A stretch of 64,000 nt of DNA from Candidatus Bathyarchaeota archaeon (lineage in GTDB: Archaea; Thermoproteota; Bathyarchaeia; Bathyarchaeales; Bathycorpusculaceae), in NCBI GenBank assembly GCA_963782525.1, contig CAWAKC010000010.1, forward strand, positions 64,001-128,000, given 5' to 3'. The notes under the pieces are model-generated. The model did no database searches. It saw only the letters and a program-made list of their open reading frames with translations, and had not been told where the DNA came from. The position numbers and the translations under genes are program-made. Positions 53,699 through 64,000 of this stretch are shown here, piece by piece (position 1 is the first letter of the stretch; each line of letters opens with the position of its first letter).

Positions 53699-56273
53699 TT
53701 ATGGTCTTTTCCTAAACATCGATAGTACTACAACAATGAGGACTATAATGATCAGAACGAATAGTCCAGCGATTGCGGGGACAAAGTAGGTGTCAGCGGC
53801 TGATGCGGGCTGCGGTGATGGTGCTGCTGTTGCTGCTAGAGGTAGGTCATATGCCATCGTTGTTTCTGAGGATGAGCTAAAGTACGAGTTTGATCCGCTA
53901 AATGTTGCAGTGATTGTGTATGTGCCTACGCCTGCTGTAAGCATGTTTTGGTCAGCTAAGAAGGCGAATTGACCGTTAGTGTCAGAGTGTGTGTCGCCGA
54001 GGTGAACTTGGTTGCCGTTGGGGTCAGTAGCGTCGATTGACACTGGGACTCCTGTTGCATTCGTGGGTTTTGCCTGTTGCTGGTAGAGGTATTCCATCCA
54101 TTGACTCATGCTTGCGTCTGAGATTGCGGGTGTGCCTGCTGCGGGTACTCCTAAGCTTGTTTGACCTGGTGATTGATCAGTGACTGTGCCCGATATCAAG
54201 ACCTTAGCTGGGTTGTTTATGGCTGGTGCCGTTGTTACGGTTGTTTCTGTTCGTCCTTTGCCAAAACAGTATATCTGGTTGTCGTAACCGTTGAGTGCGA
54301 CCATATAGCCATCGCTGAATCCTGGGAACTGCCACCATCCTTGTTCTCTAAAGATCACTTCTCCAGTCGTTTCATTTAGACACACGACGTATTCTCCTCT
54401 GTATAGCGGAGAGTTAGGAGAGTGCTCGCCTGTTGTAGCATATAATTTTCCGTCAGCAACTGTCATTTCAAGTGTACCTGATAAGCCGCCGAAAGGATAG
54501 TCACCGTATGGGGTTTCAAGTCCGCTGCTTGGACCATTGTATGTCCAAAGATATGCACCTGTTTTTACATTGTAAGCGCTGATGGTTCCGTCGTAGCTAG
54601 TTGTGAACAGAAGATCCGCTTTTGGATCAATGTCACAAGTCATGTCATAGGATGCCCATGCAGTACTGTTTGCTCTTGGCGAAATTTCCCATATTTTTTC
54701 TCCTGTTTTAACGTTGAAGCCAGTCCATTTCTGGTCGCCCCAGGTTGATAATGTCATGACTCCGTCGGCGATGTTTCCTCCGTTAGTGTAAAGGTACATG
54801 TATCCGAACAAGCCAGTTTCGTTTGTCTGCCAGATCATTGCACCCGTGTTTGCATCGTAGCCTGTTAACTCCACTAGGGGTTCAGTTGTATTTAGTTTGT
54901 CGTTATAAGTGACCAAGACGCCATCGTCGTAAGCAAGGTGATATAAAGACTGCGAGGTCGGAGCCGGCATTGATACGTTATACATTATTCCATTTGGCCA
55001 GTTGTATACGGTCGTTGAAGAGGGTCTCCATTCTAAAACACCAGCGCCACTCGTTGAGGCGCCCCCGACAGCTTGTGTTGAATTCCACATAATCAGACGG
55101 TTGTTGCTGAGAATGAACGCAAGTAGATCCCCTTGTGAGTCATATGCGTATGCGCTGCCAGCAATGCTGTTGTTGAATGTAGAAATCAAGTTGCCAGTGG
55201 TCGCGTCCATCATCGCGTACCTTCCAGTTGCGCAGTTCCAAAGATATGCCTAGTGCGCCGTTTTGGTTTCCCGTTTCGTATAGTAGTGTTTGACCTAGAG
55301 TAAGCCCGTTGACAGTGTATAATTGACCACCAGCCGTGGTGGAGGTGTTGTTTTGGAACCAAATTGTTTGGCCAGTGCGTAGGTCAACAGCATAGTATCC
55401 GTAAGCAGGTGGGGTTTGTTTGCTGTAGTACAGAATTCCGTTGATGATGATGGGTGTAAAGTAGACTTCGTAAGACTGCCCAGTATAGTAGGTATTCTCG
55501 CCTAAACCACCAGCTACAGTTCCTCCACTCGTAATCGGCTTTGTCCATACTATGTGGCCTGAATTAGGCGCAAGTCCATTAGGCTGGTATCGATTAGTTG
55601 CTGGTGAGCTGGGTGATGCTACACCGCCAGAATTACCCGTTGCTAATAGCCAGTCTCCACCGTATGAAGCCCATTCCTTGTTGAGAGCGTTTATCGGTCT
55701 AGTCCAGTAATCGGTTGGAAGTGGCGCAGATGGATAGGCTGCAAGTGGTTCTTGCTGCACAGTGAACGTTGCCACGTTGCTTAAGGATGGTTGATAGTAG
55801 AGGTTTATGACTCCGACGTTAGTTGCAGGCCAAGCGGTTGTGGAGCGTGGAGTGTCGTTTATCCATTGTCCAGGGAAATAGAACTGAACTTTGTATGTGC
55901 CCAATTCTGTTGGATTGAAAAGAATGTAGGCGTTGCTGATAGGGTCGGCTGTGTATGGTCCCATGGTTTGGTTTTTGCCGTCTGGATCTGTGATTGTTAG
56001 CGTATAGCCCTTGAAGAGGTCACCTATGTTATTTGTGGCTGAACTGACGCCGCTGCCGTTTGCGTTCATCGATATTTCTGTCATAAACATGACAATTTCG
56101 ACTGATTGCCCTAAACCTGGATTGGGTGAACTGATAGCTACCCAAGCGTGTGTTGGAACGGAAGTTGTGAATAATGCGTTTGCGTTTGGAGTTAGTAATG
56201 CTGCGGATGAAGAGATTGCTAATATTAGAATCAGAGCGATTGCAATTTTTTTGTTTTTATCTTCTATTTTCAT
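53699..56273 (-). pseudogene. Large PQQ-like beta-propeller surface protein with one frameshift (about 55249)
   Basis: ORFs 55140..56339 and 53699..55213 join after removing one G (CTA GGCA TAT CTT TGG). Paralog of 31888..34689. Confidence 0.85.
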
Positions 56274-56378
56274 TTTTTTTCCTTTCCTAAAATTATTTTT
56301 TGGATGAGGCAAATTTATTTTTTTGGGAAAATGCCGCATCCTAGCAGTTCCAACGTAAGTGATGTATTTAAGGGGGTG

Positions 56379-56474: not shown

Positions 56475-58274
56475 ATGGCGGCAAATTCAAGTTTGCACAG
56501 AGAAGAGAATATTAAAACTTTAGTTAGTCTGGGAATTAATGGTACACAAGCAAAAATTTGTTTAGCGCTTGCTCGGATTGGGGCGTCTACAATAAGTGAA
56601 CTCGCAGATGCTGCTGGGGTTGCTCGCCCGGACACCTATCGTGCAGTGGTTGAGCTCGAGAAAAAAGGGTTACTCGAGAAGATTGTATCGGCTCCAGCAC
56701 GGTATGAGCTTCTTCCTTTACCAGAAGTTTTATCCATACTGACAGAGCGGAAAGAAAAAGAAAATCGAGAATTACATGAAAAAACAGCCAACTTACTCAA
56801 GGAATATGAAAACTTGACAGATAAGCAATCTGTCGGCGGGTGTCAATTTGTTTTGGTTCCAAGCGGAAGGGCTTTTTCAAATCGTTTGCAAAAACTGATT
56901 GAAATCTCTCAAAAAAGCATCTGCATCATTACAATTCAAAAGACACTCGCGCAATTTCTTGATTTAGTACTAGTAAAAAATAGGGTGACAATCGGGAAGG
57001 AAGTACATGTCAGAATAATAACTGAAAAACATAGAAATAATTCTTTAACAAAAAGAATTTTTGGTCTGCAACAAGAGATCCATTTGGAAACAAGGTTCCT
57101 CGATATTATGCCCCCCTTCTCGTTGGTTACTTTCGACGAAAAAGAAATTCTTCTCTCAACACAAACTAAAAACAGAGATGATAGCTTCGTAGTCTACTCA
57201 AACAACGTCAGCTTAGTAGAATTGTCGCAGAGCCACTTTAACGACTCATGGTTCTCAGCAGACGAACCTCCTGGTTTAACTTTTAAACGGACCAAACTAC
57301 AATTTGACTATTTATGTGCAAACATGCTTAACGGCTTTGCCTACTGTAAAATGATATTCAAGAACGGGAAGCCGACAGATTTTATTTATCTCCAAATTAA
57401 CGAGGCTTTCGAAAGAATAACTGGACTAAATCGAGGACAAGTCATCGGCAAGGGAGTTTTAAAAGTAATACCTGGAATTGAAGGAGCAAACCCAGAATTA
57501 TTTGAAATATATGGCCGAGTTGCCTGCAGTGGAAAATCAGAAGAACTTGAAGCCTTCGTTAAACCCTTGAACCTCTGGCTGCATCTCTCAATTTACAGTC
57601 CGAAAAAAGGGTATTTCGCTGTAATATTTGAAGACATCACAGAGCGCAAGAAAGCGGAAGAAGAACGCGAAATTATGATTAACTTTCTAAAAATAGCTAA
57701 TTCAACAACCGACACGCGTGATTTGATCAGAGCTACCGTCGATTTTTTCCAGAAAGAATCCTGTTGTGAAGCGGTAGGAATTAGGCTTAAGGAGGGAGAT
57801 GATTATCCGTATTATGAAACGAGGGGTTTTCCCCAAGAACATGTCAGATTAGAAAACAAACTTTGCAAGACAGATGATTCTGGATGTATTGTTAGTGATT
57901 TTAAGGGCGATCCACTCATGGAATGTATGTGTGGAAACGTCATATGCGCACGGTTTGATCCGACAAAAAAGTTCTTCACGAAAAAAGGAAGCTTTTGGGC
58001 AAACGACACAACACGCCTCCTTGCGACCACCACTCCTGCCGACCGCCAAACCAACACCCGCAACCGTTGCAACGGGGAAGGGTACGAATCGGTGGCGCTT
58101 ATTGCTTTGCGCGTTGGGAATCACAAGTTGGGACTGTTACAGTTGAACGATAAGCGGAAGAACATGTTTACGCTTGAAAAAATTGAGATGTGGGAACGAA
58201 TAGCGGATAGTTTAGCACTTGGATTATCCAAAACCATCGCTGAAGAATCCCTCTACAAATACGAGCACATGTGA
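56475..58274 (+). CDS. TrmB wHTH/effector + PAS + GAF regulator
   Basis: TrmB N-terminus (VARPDTYR), PAS (DFIYLQINEAFERITG...FEDITERKKAEE), Cys-rich GAF (GYESVALIAL..LGLLQLND). No kinase domain. Confidence 0.8.
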   Translation: MAANSSLHREENIKTLVSLGINGTQAKICLALARIGASTISELADAAGVARPDTYRAVVELEKKGLLEKIVSAPARYELLPLPEVLSILTERKEKENRELHEKTANLLKEYENLTDKQSVGGCQFVLVPSGRAFSNRLQKLIEISQKSICIITIQKTLAQFLDLVLVKNRVTIGKEVHVRIITEKHRNNSLTKRIFGLQQEIHLETRFLDIMPPFSLVTFDEKEILLSTQTKNRDDSFVVYSNNVSLVELSQSHFNDSWFSADEPPGLTFKRTKLQFDYLCANMLNGFAYCKMIFKNGKPTDFIYLQINEAFERITGLNRGQVIGKGVLKVIPGIEGANPELFEIYGRVACSGKSEELEAFVKPLNLWLHLSIYSPKKGYFAVIFEDITERKKAEEEREIMINFLKIANSTTDTRDLIRATVDFFQKESCCEAVGIRLKEGDDYPYYETRGFPQEHVRLENKLCKTDDSGCIVSDFKGDPLMECMCGNVICARFDPTKKFFTKKGSFWANDTTRLLATTTPADRQTNTRNRCNGEGYESVALIALRVGNHKLGLLQLNDKRKNMFTLEKIEMWERIADSLALGLSKTIAEESLYKYEHM

Positions 58275-58379: not shown

Positions 58380-58961
58380 ATGAAAATCGCCATCATCGGC
58401 AAAGGCAATGTCGGAACCGCATTATCAAAGGGCCTAAGCAAAGCAGGACACGAAATAAAGTTTGGTCACCGAGACCCCGAAGAACCCGTCGCCGAAGCCG
58501 CCAAATGGGGCGAAGTAATCATACTGGCAGTACCTCACGAAAACGTCAACGACGCCATAAGAGAAATCCAACCGCAGGCCAACGGAAAAATCGTAATCGA
58601 CGTAACGAACGCTATAGGAGAAGATTACGGTTTAGGCATTAGTTGCACAACTTCCACCGCTGAAGAAACCCAGAAAAAACTTCCCAAAGCAAAAGTCGTG
58701 AAAGCATTCAACACCGTTTTCGCTCCAAACCAAAACACAGGGAAAGTTGCTGGCGAACAAATAACTGCTTTCATGGCGGGAAACGACTTGAAAGCTAAAC
58801 AGACGGTGGCACAGTTAACTCGTGACATCGGTTTTGACCCAGTCGATTGCGGACCATTAAAATCAGCGCGTTACCTGGATGCTATGGGGATTTTAATTAT
58901 CAATTTAGCGTATACTCAAAGCATGGGGAACAAGATGGGCTACAAACTGATAAAAGCATAA
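58380..58961 (+). CDS. NADPH-dependent F420 reductase-like dinucleotide-binding oxidoreductase
   Basis: IIGKGNVG, ILAVP, IVIDVTN, VVKAFNT, D.GPL.SAR. Confidence 0.87.
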   Translation: MKIAIIGKGNVGTALSKGLSKAGHEIKFGHRDPEEPVAEAAKWGEVIILAVPHENVNDAIREIQPQANGKIVIDVTNAIGEDYGLGISCTTSTAEETQKKLPKAKVVKAFNTVFAPNQNTGKVAGEQITAFMAGNDLKAKQTVAQLTRDIGFDPVDCGPLKSARYLDAMGILIINLAYTQSMGNKMGYKLIKA

Positions 58962-59259
58962 CAAAAAATCCAAATCTATTGCATGAAAAAGAAGTTGCTG
59001 CTACAAACGATTTTGACATCAACTGTTGCATATATCAAAACTAAAACAAAATTACCGAATCTGCCTTAGCAAGTTAATTGGTTTGAATCAGTAGGAACCA
59101 GAGAAGTTGTTGTTGCAAATGATTCTAAACACTTGTTGCAGCAATCAAATCTAAACTCATTGACATTAATGCATGTTATTTTAGTTTTTTTTGGGACCTT
59201 AACTGCAGTCGGAAGTCTTATATTCTAAGAATACAGATATGAGAATAGGTGATTTTTTT

Positions 59260-59667
59260 ATGGTAGAGAGCAAAACTACTTTTCTTAAGCCTTGTTTGAA
59301 GAAATATCTTATAACTTGGAGCCTCATTTTGGGGCGCGAGGAACTTGAAAAGATATCAAGACGTCCAGATGTTCTGCAAAAAGGGCTCAAATACGTGAAG
59401 AAAACGAGCAGGCAGAGTGCGCTTGAAATCTACCGGATAGGTCAGATGGAGGAAGTGACTCATTTTGAACGAATCTCCCCTCAAGCCACCCCTGCCGCAG
59501 CGCACCCCCGCGGAATAGCAATTGCCCAAGCAACCTCAATAGAGGAAGTGAGAACTATGGTGAACTACTGGGTAGAAGGATTCGGGTTCGGAGGAGTTCC
59601 CGTGAGTAACTATCTTGAATATGACATCAAACCCTTGATTGATATTACCGCAGGAGGCAAACAATAA
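59260..59667 (+). CDS. Hypothetical protein, possibly dimeric alpha/beta-barrel (DUF3303/muconolactone isomerase-like)
   Basis: KYLITW...GIAIAQATSIEEV...LEYDIKPL pattern. GGTGA RBS before ATG59260; TAATG coupling to the next gene. Confidence 0.55.
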   Translation: MVESKTTFLKPCLKKYLITWSLILGREELEKISRRPDVLQKGLKYVKKTSRQSALEIYRIGQMEEVTHFERISPQATPAAAHPRGIAIAQATSIEEVRTMVNYWVEGFGFGGVPVSNYLEYDIKPLIDITAGGKQ

Positions 59668-60599
59668 TGTCAGTTTTCAACGTTGTCGGAGTCGTCAGGT
59701 ATGGGCAAGCTATTCTTCAAGCAGATACGGTAAATTTTGCCTCAAACAGCAAACTGGTGCTAGCACCTTCAGAGAAAAACATGATTCCCCCAAAGTCACT
59801 AACGATAATTGCCAACACCATACAAATCGCAGGCCACGCAGAAATAACATATGACTTTGACGGGTTACCCGGCTTCGATTCAGACACACCCGCACCCCCA
59901 CAAACTGCCACAGTACCAAACGGTTCAAACGGCAGCTCAAGCCCAGGCGAAGGCAGCTACCCCCAAGCAAACAATGGCGGAAACGGACAACCAGGAAAAA
60001 CAGGCATCAAAGGCATCGCCGGTCAAGACGCACCAGAACTAGAAATCTTTGTTGGCAAAGTCGTACAAGTCAACCCAGACGCCATAACCGTGAACTTTAA
60101 AGGACAAGACGGCGGAAAAGGTGGAACCGGCGGCATCGGCGGAAAAGGCGGAGACGGACAGAAAGGCGCTGCATCACAAACCAGCGATTCATGGTATGAT
60201 GGCGACCAATGCGACCGCGAACCAGGACGAGGAGGAAACGGAGGCAAAGGCGGGGACGCCGGTTTTCCAGGCAGAGGCGGCCAAGGAGGAAACGGTGGCA
60301 TAGTCAAAGTCTTTGCAATAAAAGCATCCCTTCCGGCAGTCCAAGGCTGGAAATACATCGTAAACGGAGGCAAAGGAGCTGACCCAGGTGACCCAGGAAA
60401 AGAAGGCGCAGGCGGAGCAGGCGGTCCACAAGGAACCCAAAACGACCCATGCCCCTCAAGACCCGAATACCACGGAACAGACGGACCCCCAGGACAATTA
60501 ATGAATAACGCCGACCCTAACTGGCAGAACACATACAAAGGAAAAGATGGTTTAGACGGGGATGTAGGAACATACGAACTAACAGGAGTACCAAACTAA
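59667..60599 (+). CDS. Glycine-rich (GGxGGxG / GxxG) protein A
   Basis: Tracts such as GGKGGTGGIGGKGGDG alternate with short hydrophobic beta-strands; no signal peptide. Confidence 0.8.
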   Translation: MSVFNVVGVVRYGQAILQADTVNFASNSKLVLAPSEKNMIPPKSLTIIANTIQIAGHAEITYDFDGLPGFDSDTPAPPQTATVPNGSNGSSSPGEGSYPQANNGGNGQPGKTGIKGIAGQDAPELEIFVGKVVQVNPDAITVNFKGQDGGKGGTGGIGGKGGDGQKGAASQTSDSWYDGDQCDREPGRGGNGGKGGDAGFPGRGGQGGNGGIVKVFAIKASLPAVQGWKYIVNGGKGADPGDPGKEGAGGAGGPQGTQNDPCPSRPEYHGTDGPPGQLMNNADPNWQNTYKGKDGLDGDVGTYELTGVPN

Positions 60600-60606
60600 G
60601 GAGGAT

Positions 60607-61665
60607 ATGAGTAAAATGATCGTAACCGAAATATTTACCGTAACCGGCAACACCGATGTCGACGACGACATAATATTCTGCAGAAGATTAGTATTCGTAG
60701 GACCAAACGCTCAACTTGTAATCAAACCCAAGAAAGGCGCACCACCAGGCGCTCAACGCATCCTCAAAATAGTAACCAATGTCATCGACTCAACATTAGC
60801 CGGAGGCTCAGGAGAAATAACATACAACCTCGACGGAGACTACTTCCCAGCATATGAACTCCCAATAGGCGATTCCGGTCTTGACCCCGAGACACAAGCC
60901 AAGACTGGAGACGATGGAACCCCAAGCTTCAACCAAGGCCCAATTCCACTCCCAGACATCGCATCACCAAACTTCGACTTAATTCTAGACCCAACTCACT
61001 TTGTGGGTAATTACCCAAGAGCTTTAGATGGCGGCAGCGGCAAACCAGGCGGCAGAGGCAACAAAGGAGTGACTGGAGTCAACGCACCTATCGTGGAAAT
61101 CTGGGTCACAGAAATCGACGGAAAATTGGTTCTCGACCTTAAAGGGCAACAAGGCGGCATCGGCGGAAAAGGAGGAAACGGCCAGATCGCAGGCAACGGA
61201 CAAGGAGGATCGCTTGGAGTTCCAGGAACAGACACAACATGGCTAGGCATTCCAAACCTCACTTGCATACAAGGACCAGGATTGGGTGGCGATGGCGGTA
61301 AAGGAGGAAACGCAGGATGCGGTGGAGACGGTGGAGACGGCGGCAATGGAGGCACAGCCAAAATATTCTACACTAGTAGCGTAAACATGGCCAATGTGAC
61401 ACCAAACCTCCAAAAAGGCAAAGGCGGACAGCCTGGATCACCAGGAATAGCGGGCAAAGGGGGGAAATCAGGTCCACCTGGAGCCAATCCTCCACCATGT
61501 CCATCAGCTTTAGTCTCCCAAGATGGTGCAGACGGCGACCCATGCCTCTCAGACACTGGAGATAAACGCGGCGGAGTAGCACAACCCGGGGCAGACGGCA
61601 TAGACGGAAAGTATTACACTTACCCAATCAAAGCCATTCCCCAAATGCCCGGACTCTTTCCCTAA
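60607..61665 (+). CDS. Glycine-rich protein B (paralog of A)
   Basis: AGGAGG RBS; same block order as A (EITY..DG, AP..EI.V, KGQ.GG, C..PG.GG, GGNGG..K.F). Confidence 0.8.
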   Translation: MSKMIVTEIFTVTGNTDVDDDIIFCRRLVFVGPNAQLVIKPKKGAPPGAQRILKIVTNVIDSTLAGGSGEITYNLDGDYFPAYELPIGDSGLDPETQAKTGDDGTPSFNQGPIPLPDIASPNFDLILDPTHFVGNYPRALDGGSGKPGGRGNKGVTGVNAPIVEIWVTEIDGKLVLDLKGQQGGIGGKGGNGQIAGNGQGGSLGVPGTDTTWLGIPNLTCIQGPGLGGDGGKGGNAGCGGDGGDGGNGGTAKIFYTSSVNMANVTPNLQKGKGGQPGSPGIAGKGGKSGPPGANPPPCPSALVSQDGADGDPCLSDTGDKRGGVAQPGADGIDGKYYTYPIKAIPQMPGLFP

Positions 61666-61712: not shown

Positions 61713-62831
61713 TTATTTTTGCTGTAAACTAATTCCTCTATCTTGAATTTCATCAGAAACCACTTTTCTAAACAAGATAGTTCCCTTAATTGATTCTTCG
61801 ACTTCGAGCTCGGTAACTTTGCCAAGGATTGTTTCCATGTCGGCAAGAATCTCTGGACATGTTGCCTGAACTGATTTTTTGAAGGGCTCAAAGGGGACAT
61901 AGAAGGATGGTTTTCTACCTTTTCTCGCTTCTTCAAGTACCACAGGGCATCTTGAGAGTGAATATGCCCAGAACCTGAGGTAAAAATTCGCATTCGGATA
62001 ATCTTTCTTAGCAATCAATGCGTTTGCGACCAGCTCCCGGTATTCAAGCTCTAGGGGAGAGATAGAATATGCGAAATGACCTTTTGCCCTCATACTTACC
62101 CCAGAAAGTTGGCGTCCATCACACCTCAACCGCACATTATCGTAAACTCTGCGAAGCGCAGCAAGCGAGAATGATGGGTCGACATCCAAATGCAGATTAC
62201 CCCTTAACAGTGGTTCCAGCTCGCAATTGGTTTCCCCAGCCATATGCTCGAGTTTAGTCACTGGGCGAGTCAAAAGACTCATAGTGCTGCGTTTAAGGCA
62301 GTCCGCCAAGGCTGTGATATAGTAAGAATGGGCTGTCTGCAAAAAGAAGAGAGCAGCCGAAGGAAAATCCAGATTCTTTCTTGACTCTTCAAGAGCAGCA
62401 TCGCCAAACCCTATCTGGTGCCCAATTCTTTGCTCCCACACAGCCTTATCGTAAACACTCAACTTTATACTATCAATCAGGTCCCTAACGGGTTCAGATC
62501 GCAACCAGACCGGCTCATACTCGAGCAGAAGATGAGGAAGAACTTTGTAACTCGCAGCCTCGAGGGAGTCAACCATCTTTGAAACCGGTATCCATAGAAT
62601 GTCTACGAACACTCGTCCCATTTGGCTCTCCACTGTTATTCTCTCCGGGTATTCTTCGGGCCCCTCCCAGATCGATATTAAATCGACATCTGACACTTCA
62701 GGGCAATCCTCATCCAAAAAAGGTTTTCTAACTAGAACACCCAAAGATCGGGGTTCAAGCAAACTAGACGCCTTCTTTGCAGCTTCAAGAAGGCTACGGT
62801 TATCTAAGGTAAGAGGACTGTCTTCAAGCAT
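61713..62831 (-). CDS. Pol-beta-type nucleotidyltransferase-like protein with helical C-terminal domain
   Basis: SDVDL plus downstream VDI acidic triad; helical C-terminal half; TAATG coupling to the cyclase gene. Confidence 0.5.
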   Translation of the reverse strand: MLEDSPLTLDNRSLLEAAKKASSLLEPRSLGVLVRKPFLDEDCPEVSDVDLISIWEGPEEYPERITVESQMGRVFVDILWIPVSKMVDSLEAASYKVLPHLLLEYEPVWLRSEPVRDLIDSIKLSVYDKAVWEQRIGHQIGFGDAALEESRKNLDFPSAALFFLQTAHSYYITALADCLKRSTMSLLTRPVTKLEHMAGETNCELEPLLRGNLHLDVDPSFSLAALRRVYDNVRLRCDGRQLSGVSMRAKGHFAYSISPLELEYRELVANALIAKKDYPNANFYLRFWAYSLSRCPVVLEEARKGRKPSFYVPFEPFKKSVQATCPEILADMETILGKVTELEVEESIKGTILFRKVVSDEIQDRGISLQQK

Positions 62832-63907
62832 TATAGTTCACCTTTCAAAGATTTATTTTCGAACTCTGAGAGTGCCGCGAAAACTGTTGCTGTTGTGAAT
62901 AGACGCTTGTGGTCTTTGATTGCAGCGTTTATTGCTTTTCCGTCTTGGTTCCAGAAAGTCTGGTTCCAAGGGTCCATCATCGATGGATAAGGTATCCTCA
63001 GAATATGGTTGGTGCTCCAGCTTCCGTCTGATAGCTGGTGATTCAAAAGCCATCTTACGCAATTTAGTATCTTCTCTGAGAAGTTCGAGTTAGCTTCAAC
63101 CATAAGACCTTTCAATGCCAGAGCTGTTGAGAAAGGCCAACCTTCAATGGGTTGGATCGAATCGCTCCAGCTCCCATCTGCCAGCTGCGTTTTCGCAATC
63201 CAATTCTGAGCATTGCCAAAAATTTTTGCATTATTGTCTCCTGCTGCCTTTAGGGCTTCCATGCAGTTAACGGTGGCATAGAGTTTCCCGCTCCACCAGT
63301 AAGGATTCCAGTAGCCTTCCACAACTTGACCTCTTCTAATATATTCTAACGCCTTGCCGACACCTTGAGTCGAACCATTCTCAATCAACGCCTGGGTGGC
63401 CACCGCAGTGACACACAACTGGGAGGATGCCCAGCCTTCAAACGATACGGTTCCATCCAACATCATGTAACGCCCAACGTGACTTGGATTAGCATAAGTT
63501 CTAAAGCCGCCATCAACTGGACTTTGATGCTTTAACAGAAAACTAATGGCCTTCTCACGGCTGACTTGACTTTGTATCCCAAGCTTTGCGAGGAAACGAA
63601 GGCACCAAGCGGTCGAATCTCCATCGGAGGGAACACCAAAACCATAGCCCCAGCCTCCAACATCGCTCTGATGAGCAAGGACGCTGTGACCGATCGTCTC
63701 AAGCCACTTCTTCTCCTCAGGATCGTCAAGGTGACAAATTATGTTGTGTCCCACGTACCCAGAAACCCAATAAACACTCTCACCTGCCAAAGTGAGAAAA
63801 TCAGACCAAAACCCATCCGGGTTACGGCTGTCTTTTAAAAACTTGAAAGTTCTATCAAGTGAGATCCTTAACCTATCAGAATTTTCTGAATTTCTTCGAA
63901 CCGCCAT
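62831..63907 (-). CDS. Monodomain class II terpene cyclase (prenyltransferase/squalene cyclase alpha-alpha barrel), MstE-like
   Basis: Six QW-type repeats (NPDGFW, QSDVGGW, QSPVDGGF, QVVEGYW, QLADGSW, QLSDGSW); DGDST acid motif; LRIPYP; FTTATV. Confidence 0.8.
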   Translation of the reverse strand: MAVRRNSENSDRLRISLDRTFKFLKDSRNPDGFWSDFLTLAGESVYWVSGYVGHNIICHLDDPEEKKWLETIGHSVLAHQSDVGGWGYGFGVPSDGDSTAWCLRFLAKLGIQSQVSREKAISFLLKHQSPVDGGFRTYANPSHVGRYMMLDGTVSFEGWASSQLCVTAVATQALIENGSTQGVGKALEYIRRGQVVEGYWNPYWWSGKLYATVNCMEALKAAGDNNAKIFGNAQNWIAKTQLADGSWSDSIQPIEGWPFSTALALKGLMVEANSNFSEKILNCVRWLLNHQLSDGSWSTNHILRIPYPSMMDPWNQTFWNQDGKAINAAIKDHKRLFTTATVFAALSEFENKSLKGEL

Positions 63908-63909
63908 AT

Positions 63910-64000
63910 TTAATCCATCTGACCCATATTTATCGGAAATTCGACTTGACTTTTACTCCAGACTTGAATTCTCAAAGGTGAGATTGTATTATTGAAGGGA
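63910..64000 (-). CDS. 3' end of an upstream gene of the cyclase operon (truncated by the window)
   Basis: Open frame ...PFNNTISPLRIQVWSKSQVEFPINMGQMD* ends 2 nt before the cyclase ATG. Confidence 0.5.
   Translation of the reverse strand, partial: PFNNTISPLRIQVWSKSQVEFPINMGQMD

Follow-up and report, generated by a model that had tools for sequence, protein, structure and literature searches.

What does a class II terpene cyclase act on in an archaeon, and what does it make? The question is raised by a gene close to the end of a 64,000-nucleotide stretch of DNA (C10:64001-128000, hereafter the window), part of a 233-kb contig in a metagenome-assembled genome (MAG) of the Bathyarchaeia. Enzymes of this class are usually assumed to produce free lipids or natural products. 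The initial annotation of the gene, made from the sequence alone, followed that line and proposed a small-molecule pathway in which a geranylgeranyl (GG)-aromatic substrate is cyclized. The genes that accompany the cyclase suggest that it modifies glycine-rich proteins encoded beside it and makes no free steroid-like compound.

The open reading frame (ORF) in question runs from ATG to stop on the minus strand, whereas the plus strand across the same interval carries many stops. The gene and its catalytic motif lie as follows.

62831-63907, minus strand: monodomain (beta-only) class II terpene cyclase of 358 amino acids (aa), assigned from phmmer matches to PDB chains, Pfam and 194 homologues
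63605-63655, minus strand: catalytic motif GWGYGFGVPSDGDSTAW of the cyclase, residues 85-101, with D95 and D97 forming DxD

The protein contains six QW-like repeats, which start at residues 23, 76, 123, 189, 236 and 286, and its motif reads GWGY-GFGVPS-DGDSTAW, with D95 and D97. The single-barrel cyclase of 358 aa with six QW repeats that had first been described was thus confirmed at 62831-63907. The motif, given there as GWGY-x5-DGDSTAW, is present as well, but its spacer counts six residues and not five.

When the cyclase was compared with PDB chains using phmmer, 8pak (361 aa, E value of 3.8e-42), 8paj (365 aa, 1.5e-41) and 6ij1 (346 aa, named 'Prenylcyclase', 3.7e-34) matched it from end to end, and MstE (6sbg, 367 aa) gave an E value of 1.8e-35, with residues 12-346 of the query aligned to 23-360 of the chain. 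The end-to-end similarity to MstE, which the initial annotation had put forward, was therefore borne out. A two-domain squalene-hopene cyclase reached only 7e-13, over residues 183-303, and the matches to Rab geranylgeranyltransferase beta subunits were not significant (0.4-0.8), so that the best solved relatives are monodomain cyclases and not prenyltransferase beta subunits. A literature search for papers naming 8pak, 8paj or 6ij1 found none. Residues 12-355 align to PDB chains of 346-367 aa as a single alpha/alpha-barrel, without a gamma or an alpha domain. Pfam returned SQHop_cyclase_C (3.7e-16) together with SQHop_cyclase_N, Prenyltrans and TED_complement, and the NCBIfam cyclase models all scored far under their cut-offs (for example, 69 bits vs 322.7).

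The catalytic residues were examined in the same alignments. D95-G-D97-S of the cyclase aligns to D-A-D-T of MstE, with the DxD kept and D97 opposite the second Asp of the MstE motif. G85, W86, Y88, P93, D95, D97 and S98 do not vary among the 48 cyclases (48/48) of three groups, namely 16 archaeal, 20 bacterial MstE-like and 12 from a distant gene triad presented below. MstE Y157 aligns to Y147 of the cyclase, and each of the 16 archaeal-clade sequences in the alignment has Y or F there. These comparisons make it nearly certain that the ORF of this Bathyarchaeia genome encodes a true MstE-family class II terpene cyclase of the beta-only type, with its general-acid DxD (D95/D97) and barrel aromatics intact.

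That the gene belongs to an archaeon, as initially stated, is supported by three observations. The host is a Bathyarchaeia MAG of 2.87 Mb in 12 contigs (95.8% complete, 2.7% contaminated), from a soil or sediment archaeon; an RpoH gene (RNA_pol_Rpb5_C, 2e-29) lies about 1 kb past the end of the window; and the closest cyclase homologues, 96-79% identical, are on contigs titled Candidatus Bathyarchaeota. The MstE-type assignment holds, but the premise of novelty was weakened. In its available portion, a 2025 MBE paper (PMC12414744) delineates a monodomain MstE clade with a DxD motif and several archaeal members, one of them from Methanosarcina acetivorans, so that an archaeal MstE-like gene is not new in itself. 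According to the available part of a preprint, Asgard archaea have functional diterpenoid cyclases, and the separate clade to which these belong also includes lone sequences from Bathyarchaeia and Nitrososphaerota.

With an aligned set of 16 cyclase homologues as the query, a scan in which each species was represented by one genome gave 78 loci. Twenty-eight of them, at 49-96% identity to the cyclase, form with the window's own locus a set of 29 archaeal-type loci. The titles of the 28 are mostly Bathyarchaeota or Bathyarchaeia, with some Thaumarchaeota, Nitrososphaerales or Nitrososphaeria, one Methanoregulaceae and one Candidatus Desulfaltia. The other 50 loci, at 41% identity or less, have bacterial titles. 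The archaeal-type cyclase belongs to a module of five genes, in which the cyclase and n372 are convergent with p142, Gly310 and Gly352. In the window, the four partners of the cyclase and their motifs are the following.

61713-62831, minus strand: n372, an orphan protein of 372 aa, probably a KNTase-like nucleotidyltransferase, next to the cyclase in 28 of 29 loci and in exact co-occurrence with it
62679-62693, minus strand: SDVDL motif of n372 (D48, D50), which with D77 (62601-62603) makes a possible metal-binding carboxylate triad
59239-59667, plus strand: p142, a small soluble conserved protein with no assigned family, its likely true start being M8 at 59260
59667-60599, plus strand: Gly310, a paralogous glycine-rich protein in the same cluster as Gly352, found in 25 loci
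60183-60227, plus strand: conserved loop SDSWYDGDQCDREPG of Gly310, with W176 and C182, a candidate acceptor site
60607-61665, plus strand: Gly352, a protein rich in glycine (21% Gly), its beta-like segments separated by repeat blocks of the GGX/GXY type, convergent with n372, found in 25 loci
61228-61266, plus strand: conserved Trp...Cys loop TDTTWLGIPNLTC of Gly352, with W212 and C220

In 28 of the 29 archaeal-type loci, n372 comes immediately downstream of the cyclase; neither blastp nor a profile search found it in any of the 50 bacterial cyclase loci (0/50). A search of three bacterial genomes with MstE-like cyclases (Paracoccaceae, Anaerolineae and Rivularia) likewise showed it to be absent. 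Gly352 and Gly310 are each present in 25 of the 29 loci, and of the four loci that lack them, three are cut off by a contig end before the place where they would lie. p142, in a fixed position, was detected in 25 loci by blastp and in 27 by clustering. The flanks vary among the 29 loci, and no further gene is conserved around the module. The start of n372 overlaps the stop of the cyclase by 1 nt (TAATG), the same 1-nt overlap joins p142 to Gly310, and a GGAGG spacer precedes Gly352. No hydrophobic 19-mer occurs in any of the five proteins. p142, Gly310, Gly352 and n372 matched no Pfam, NCBIfam, PADLOC or PHROG family, the sole exception being a chance-level collagen-like match (0.014).

In the locus that departs from this arrangement, L028, the cyclase stops short at about residue 269 and is abutted by a fragment of p142, and n372 and the glycine-rich genes are absent; judging from these remnants, the locus is a degraded copy of the module (genome G232). 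In seven MAG loci (L003, L007, L018, L020, L024, L025 and L029), two or three ORFs stand in place of single module genes, which could reflect assembly indel errors or real decay.

The distribution of the module was determined in genome samples. Among 301 genomes drawn evenly from the class, 9 carry the cyclase, as do 2 of the 15 genomes of the genus. n372 was found in 8 of those 301, namely the cyclase-positive set minus G232, in which the cyclase is a broken remnant. In a phylum-wide sample, the cyclase was detected in a single one of the 401 genomes, that of the window itself. Across the phylum to which the Methanoregulaceae MAG belongs, it was found in that MAG only, and three weaker matches were to two-domain DxDD cyclase-like proteins. 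These three (L095, L096 and L097, in genomes G756, G753 and G772) are frames of 572-656 aa that resemble two-domain squalene-hopene cyclases, with the canonical DxDD (PDNDD, PDVDD) in genomes binned as archaea. The patchy distribution indicates an accessory module and not core lipid synthesis. Ring formation of the crenarchaeol type in core lipids, considered since some homologues are named Thaumarchaeota, was rejected on the same counts. Thus, the cyclase is very probably one enzyme of a self-contained, patchily distributed accessory module and does not act in an MstE-type pathway with UbiA and aromatic-acid genes, as far as gene content and conservation can tell. A literature search for an association of the cyclase with n372 and the glycine-rich proteins found no report.

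n372 belongs to a small family, its profile having only 74 representatives among 1.84 billion proteins. None of 37 members has a Pfam family (37/37), and three profiles matched no PDB chain. Residues D50, D77, H100, R135, E261, R265 and R286 are invariant, and D48 is nearly so. A strand with S-D-x-D-L followed by a third Asp 27 residues on is a pattern like that of Pol-beta nucleotidyltransferases (NTases), with R-x-P in place of G-S. In the protein Atlas, the feature neighbours at 0.95 of a stored distant n372 homologue included NTP_transf_2 (30-80% of members), KNTase_C and Polbeta. From this pattern, n372 is probably a KNTase-like NTase, the Atlas neighbours being a lead and not proof.

Distant relatives of n372 (about 27% identity, with one cluster named Dinoroseobacter) were used to scan metagenome contigs, which yielded 30 loci. 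A glycine-rich gene stands next to the distant n372 in 24 of the 26 loci with at least 600 nt downstream, and one more was added by clustering only. Past the last glycine-rich gene, a cyclase-like gene was detected with the profile of 16 homologues in 15 of the 16 loci with at least 900 nt of sequence there, and the sixteenth was detected by phmmer (1.4e-4). GGWSYF...PPD-x-DS is present in 16 of 16 of these cyclase-like proteins, and one of them, compared with PDB, matched the class II cyclases 7xkx (2.5e-11) and 8pak (3.6e-7). The distant triad therefore consists of an n372-like gene, a glycine-rich gene and a DxD cyclase-like gene, the glycine-rich gene lying between those of the two enzymes. 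Its flanks hold varied bacterial genes (TonB receptor, RelA/SpoT, OmpA, UPF0182) with no isoprenoid gene among them, and the G+C content of the loci is 0.50-0.75. We consider it highly likely, on gene order and homology, that a distantly related triad occurs in bacteria.

The glycine-rich proteins are the third component common to both settings. Ninety-six homologues of Gly352 were found, with no annotated function; a Pfam family was assigned to just two weak, distant matches. Comparison of the archaeal with the distant glycine-rich proteins gave 6e-20 and 5e-14 for the real queries. In the controls, the best value among 20 local shuffles of each was 5.9, and the reversed sequences gave 6.8e-5 and 6.2. 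By these comparisons, the glycine-rich proteins of the archaeal module and of the distant triad are homologous. The hidden Markov models built from the N-terminal domains alone matched just two distant proteins, weakly, and the homology consequently rests on the core and the loop motif. In an alignment of 21 proteins (8 archaeal and 13 distant), the core follows the order beta-like segment, GGX block, W/C loop, second GGX block, beta-like segment and later Cys, and the W and C of the loop are conserved in at least 80% of the proteins. The W...C motif is present in 25 of 29 distant glycine-rich proteins, many of them reading SDTSWPGTGCDRQPG.

Two trees were computed to which MstE itself was not added, the Rivularia homologue representing the cyanobacteria. 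For the first, 55 of the 78 loci and the window were given, fragments and close duplicates being left out, and two sequences were dropped for internal stops, leaving 54 rows. The archaeal-type sequences (23 rows) lie on one side of a branch with an SH-aLRT support of 100, the sequence adjacent to them is from Anaerolineae (support of 93), and the clade groups with bacterial MstE-like sequences. In the second tree (48 rows), the distant-triad cyclases form a clade of their own (support of 100) far from the rest, with a mean path of 6.1, vs 3.4 from archaeal to bacterial MstE-like sequences. The two triads therefore use cyclases from different branches of one family. One archaeal and one separate bacterial cyclase clade are each locked to an NTase-like enzyme and to Trp...Cys glycine-rich proteins.

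How might these components work together? Three known enzymes offer a guide. According to the available text of a review, the substrate of MstE is free geranylgeranyl-dihydroxybenzoate (GG-DHB), and Y157 holds its aromatic ring. As reported in the accessible portion of PMC13290415, NctPC consists of an ABBA-type P domain and an MstE-like C domain that cyclizes a geranylgeranyl group on Trp, and ChrPC of a P domain like a trans-IDS (isoprenyl diphosphate synthase) and a C domain that cyclizes the prenyl group on an internal Trp. The same portion of PMC13290415 gives C10-C20 for prenyl groups of this type and states that Gly beside the Trp aids access.

On balance, we lean, if only modestly, towards a cyclase that works within its module on the co-encoded proteins. 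More tentatively, and by analogy with these enzymes, we propose that an isoprenoid is cyclized on the Trp loop of the co-encoded glycine-rich proteins. Polycyclization would start with D97 protonating a C15-C20 polyprenyl chain at its terminal double bond. The acceptor of the chain, or of the final carbocation, would be the loop with the invariant Trp (or Cys) in Gly310/Gly352, where the indole would take the role of the dihydroxybenzoate ring in MstE or that of the peptide Trp for the C domains of NctPC/ChrPC. n372 would act on that substrate too, by a nucleotidyl transfer that depends on a metal (or by a diphosphate-dependent transfer), and the product would be a protein bearing a cyclic terpenoid. 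In a possible variant, the cyclization carbocation would be quenched directly on the side chain. The chemistry first suggested for the gene, cyclization of a polyprenyl chain onto an aromatic ring, may then be right in kind if the ring is that of a protein Trp. Taken to its furthest extent, the proposal is of an undescribed protein-terpenylation system common to archaea and bacteria, in which an MstE-type cyclase and a KNTase-like enzyme, with no canonical prenyltransferase, would place a cyclized C15-C20 terpenoid on dedicated soluble proteins, rich in glycine and 300-650 aa long, at a loop with an invariant Trp (or Cys). In this general form we hold it to be conceivable but doubtful.

Several observations weigh against modification of the co-encoded proteins. 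The module contains no recognizable prenyltransferase, n372 looking like an NTase and not like a prenyltransferase. Even the NTase character of n372 was not recovered by profile comparison, as hhalign of n372 against bona fide NTases of the host genome aligned the motif only (12 columns, probability of 4.5%, not significant). The Trp/Cys loop could be purely structural. Finally, as the cyclases of the two triads come from different branches, the association may have arisen twice or may have involved replacement.

Among the other explanations, the one that fares best holds that the cyclase acts on a free isoprenoid diphosphate or on an unsaturated archaeal lipid precursor and that n372 joins the product to a nucleotide, yielding a terpene-nucleotide or terpene-nucleoside, with the glycine-rich proteins as carriers, scaffolds or targets. 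The Rv3377c/Rv3378c pair, which makes 1-tuberculosinyladenosine, provides an analogy. Translational coupling and strict co-occurrence of the cyclase and n372, the NTase-like features of n372 and the availability of geranylgeranyl diphosphate in any archaeon are in keeping with this scheme. So is a preference for C20-or-shorter head-to-tail substrates, favored because searches of the host genome found no squalene synthase or phytoene synthase. A small-molecule pathway nevertheless leaves unexplained that the glycine-rich gene of the distant triads lies between those of both enzymes and is equally conserved. In addition, MstE takes an aryl-terminated substrate and the NctPC C domain a Trp-linked one, not a diphosphate, as far as the available portions of these sources go, and the patchy distribution excludes a core lipid role. 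We regard a terpene-nucleotide product as unlikely.

Somewhat less probable still is the pathway proposed at the outset, in which a free GG-aromatic acid, prenylated elsewhere by a UbiA-type enzyme, would be cyclized to a meroterpenoid as by MstE, with the neighboring genes unrelated or acting downstream. It has on its side the full-length homology to MstE with the conserved DxD, the position of Y147 opposite MstE Y157, which holds the aromatic ring according to the part of the review at hand, and the presence in the genome of five UbiA-family genes and three polyprenyl synthases. However, all eight of these genes are on contigs other than that of the cyclase, the UbiA-family genes being on C2, C7 and C9. 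No UbiA or aromatic-acid gene was found within the 20 kb examined around the cyclase, including the region past base 64000 where the initial annotation had suggested looking for them, and none is conserved across the 29 archaeal-type loci. A control search for UbiA was positive in 14 of 14 genomes; as these genes are universal in archaea, their presence in the host says little. The five UbiA and three synthase proteins of the host, compared by phmmer with all locus ORFs, gave no match, although, being archaeal queries, they are uninformative for the bacterial loci. A pathway of this kind also leaves the strict co-occurrence of the cyclase with n372 and the glycine-rich genes unexplained.

A further proposal concerns biological role and is compatible with any of these chemistries, namely that the module is a conflict or defense island, or a niche-specific accessory system, spread by horizontal transfer. 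Its patchy presence (9/301 in the class, 2/15 in the genus and 1/401 in the phylum), the variable flanks, the one degraded copy (L028/G232) and the hosts labeled from several lineages would fit. Conversely, PADLOC and PHROG gave no match for any of the five proteins, and viral contigs and phage records held no relative. In the plasmid search, there was no n372 relative, and the sole cyclase relative was 26% identical and located on a Deinococcus megaplasmid in an unrelated context. No integrase or tRNA was seen near the module, and no Rfam family in the window. The G+C content of the loci (0.35-0.71) follows the host range, which suggests long residence. Such a role appears improbable. Least convincing is that the barrel has been recruited for non-terpenoid work, either cross-linking of the Trp...Cys loop after activation by n372, for which the LanC-type alpha/alpha-toroid cyclases are a loose analogy, or binding or chaperoning of the glycine-rich proteins: the triad is self-contained, with two enzymes and a conserved protein with an invariant W...C loop, and no isoprenoid gene is in the module, but the acid motif and aromatic residues of terpene cyclases are invariant in all three cyclase groups, the homology is to MstE-type cyclases and not to LanC, and there is no hint of a zinc site, which makes this a poor prospect.

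Returning to the proposed modification of glycine-rich proteins, we looked at the settings in which the nearest relatives of the cyclase occur outside the archaeal-type loci. A search for longer forms of the cyclase gave 18 proteins of 636-744 aa, with at most 43% identity over 92-97% of the query. In these fusions of about 670 aa, the C-terminal half is the cyclase, and the N-terminal half of about 330 aa has no Pfam match. A Q-x-x-D-D-x-x-D motif was seen in the N-terminal half of three of the four fusions read and in the L054 fusion. In the available text of PMC12510300 and PMC13290415, trans-IDS-like Trp prenyltransferases have a Gln just upstream of the second Asp-rich motif (Q216/D219 in Ord1). 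By sequence, the fusions are the closest cyclase relatives outside the archaeal clade, and their likeness to ChrPC/NctPC rests on architecture and motif. A tblastn search of the host genome for a homologue of the N-terminal domain found none, and n372 is unrelated to that domain (hhalign probabilities of 0.1% and 1.1%).

The next-closest cyclase relative stands in a setting like that of peptides made on the ribosome and modified after translation (RiPPs). In this Anaerolineae MAG contig (L031, 4552-12893), an MstE-like cyclase lies between two radical-SAM genes, accompanied by a 690-aa fusion of a class I-like domain with a cyclase and by a 403-aa PqqD-domain protein, and the cyclase ORF begins with a Cys-rich SPASM-like stretch. 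On a Rivularia sp. chromosome (L064, 4840-7008), a 722-aa ORF has an MstE-like C-terminal half and an N-terminal part of about 380 aa without a Pfam match; this could be a cyanobacterial-type fusion of a prenyltransferase and a cyclase.

The region beyond the module was also described. Past base 64000 come a membrane ORF (m139), RpoH, a TOBE/ModE-like helix-turn-helix (HTH) regulator, other ORFs, an alcohol dehydrogenase and a HAD hydrolase. The first of these begins to appear at the window's edge.

63972-64000, minus strand: 3' end of m139, a membrane ORF of 139 aa that continues past the window (L002 7972-8391), a sixth gene in loose association with the module

m139 has at least three hydrophobic segments and no match in Pfam, NCBIfam, PADLOC or PHROG. 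Of the 29 archaeal-type loci, 12 have it no more than 6 kb from the cyclase, with a position and orientation that vary. RpoH (L002:8924-9523, plus strand, about 0.9 kb past the window) is a two-domain protein of 199 aa whose N-terminal region of about 120 aa matches restriction-endonuclease-like families (NA-iREase1, 3.5e-6; Mrr_cat, 8.1e-6). This two-domain archaeal RpoH is reminiscent of the two-domain eukaryotic Rpb5, and the long form is kept, with 27 of 31 relatives matching and other families of the order aligning over residues of about 20-199. On the other side of the module, the genes for a 599-aa TrmB-type HTH regulator with a PAS region (56475-58274, plus strand) and for an F420-dependent NADP oxidoreductase-like protein (58380-58961, plus strand) come immediately upstream of the p142 operon; neither is kept with the module in other loci. 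Farther away (53699-56339, minus strand), two large ORFs of 504 and 399 aa, the first with a PQQ_2 beta-propeller match (3e-10) and a C-terminal hydrophobic tail, probably encode surface proteins on account of these features.

If the protein-modification proposal is true, the reach of terpene cyclase chemistry is not confined to small RiPP peptides but takes in whole proteins. Full-length proteins would for the first time be seen to carry a cyclic terpenoid as a modification, archaea would have a lipid-like protein modification of a new kind, and four orphan families would be placed in a functional setting. Such a modification would also be the first function assigned to an archaeal MstE-clade cyclase, the members in print being noted only as sequences in the portions of the literature available. 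Should it fail, the triad still marks an unexplored terpenoid pathway without a known prenyltransferase.

The module can finally be set against the systems that it resembles. With squalene-hopene and other two-domain (beta-gamma) cyclases, the archaeal enzyme shares the superfamily, the QW repeats and a beta domain that carries an acid motif, but it lacks the gamma domain, has DxD and not DxDD, and matches them in part only. For n372, the likeness is to KNTase-like two-domain NTases, in a length of about 370 aa, S-D-x-D-L with a third Asp, and NTP_transf_2, KNTase_C and Polbeta as Atlas neighbors; unlike them, it has no Pfam or PDB match, carries R-x-P for the NTase G-S and gives no significant profile-profile match. 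The monodomain cyclases 8pak, 8paj and 6ij1 are of the same architecture as the archaeal enzyme and are its best solved relatives. MstE of Scytonema sp. (PDB 6sbb-6sbg) shares with it the single beta-domain barrel of about 360 aa, DxD for DxDD, a full-length alignment and the equivalent of Y157. MstE, however, acts on free GG-DHB, according to the available part of the review, whereas the archaeal cyclase, linked to n372 and the glycine-rich proteins, has neither UbiA nor aromatic-acid genes as partners. Compared with ChrPC and NctPC, the archaeal cyclase stands alone, with no P domain in the module or the genome, and its putative acceptor is a protein of 310-352 aa and not a short peptide. 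Nevertheless, the C domains of these two enzymes are MstE-like, as described in the accessible portion of PMC13290415, and the proteins co-encoded with the archaeal cyclase likewise present an invariant Trp in a Gly-rich setting.

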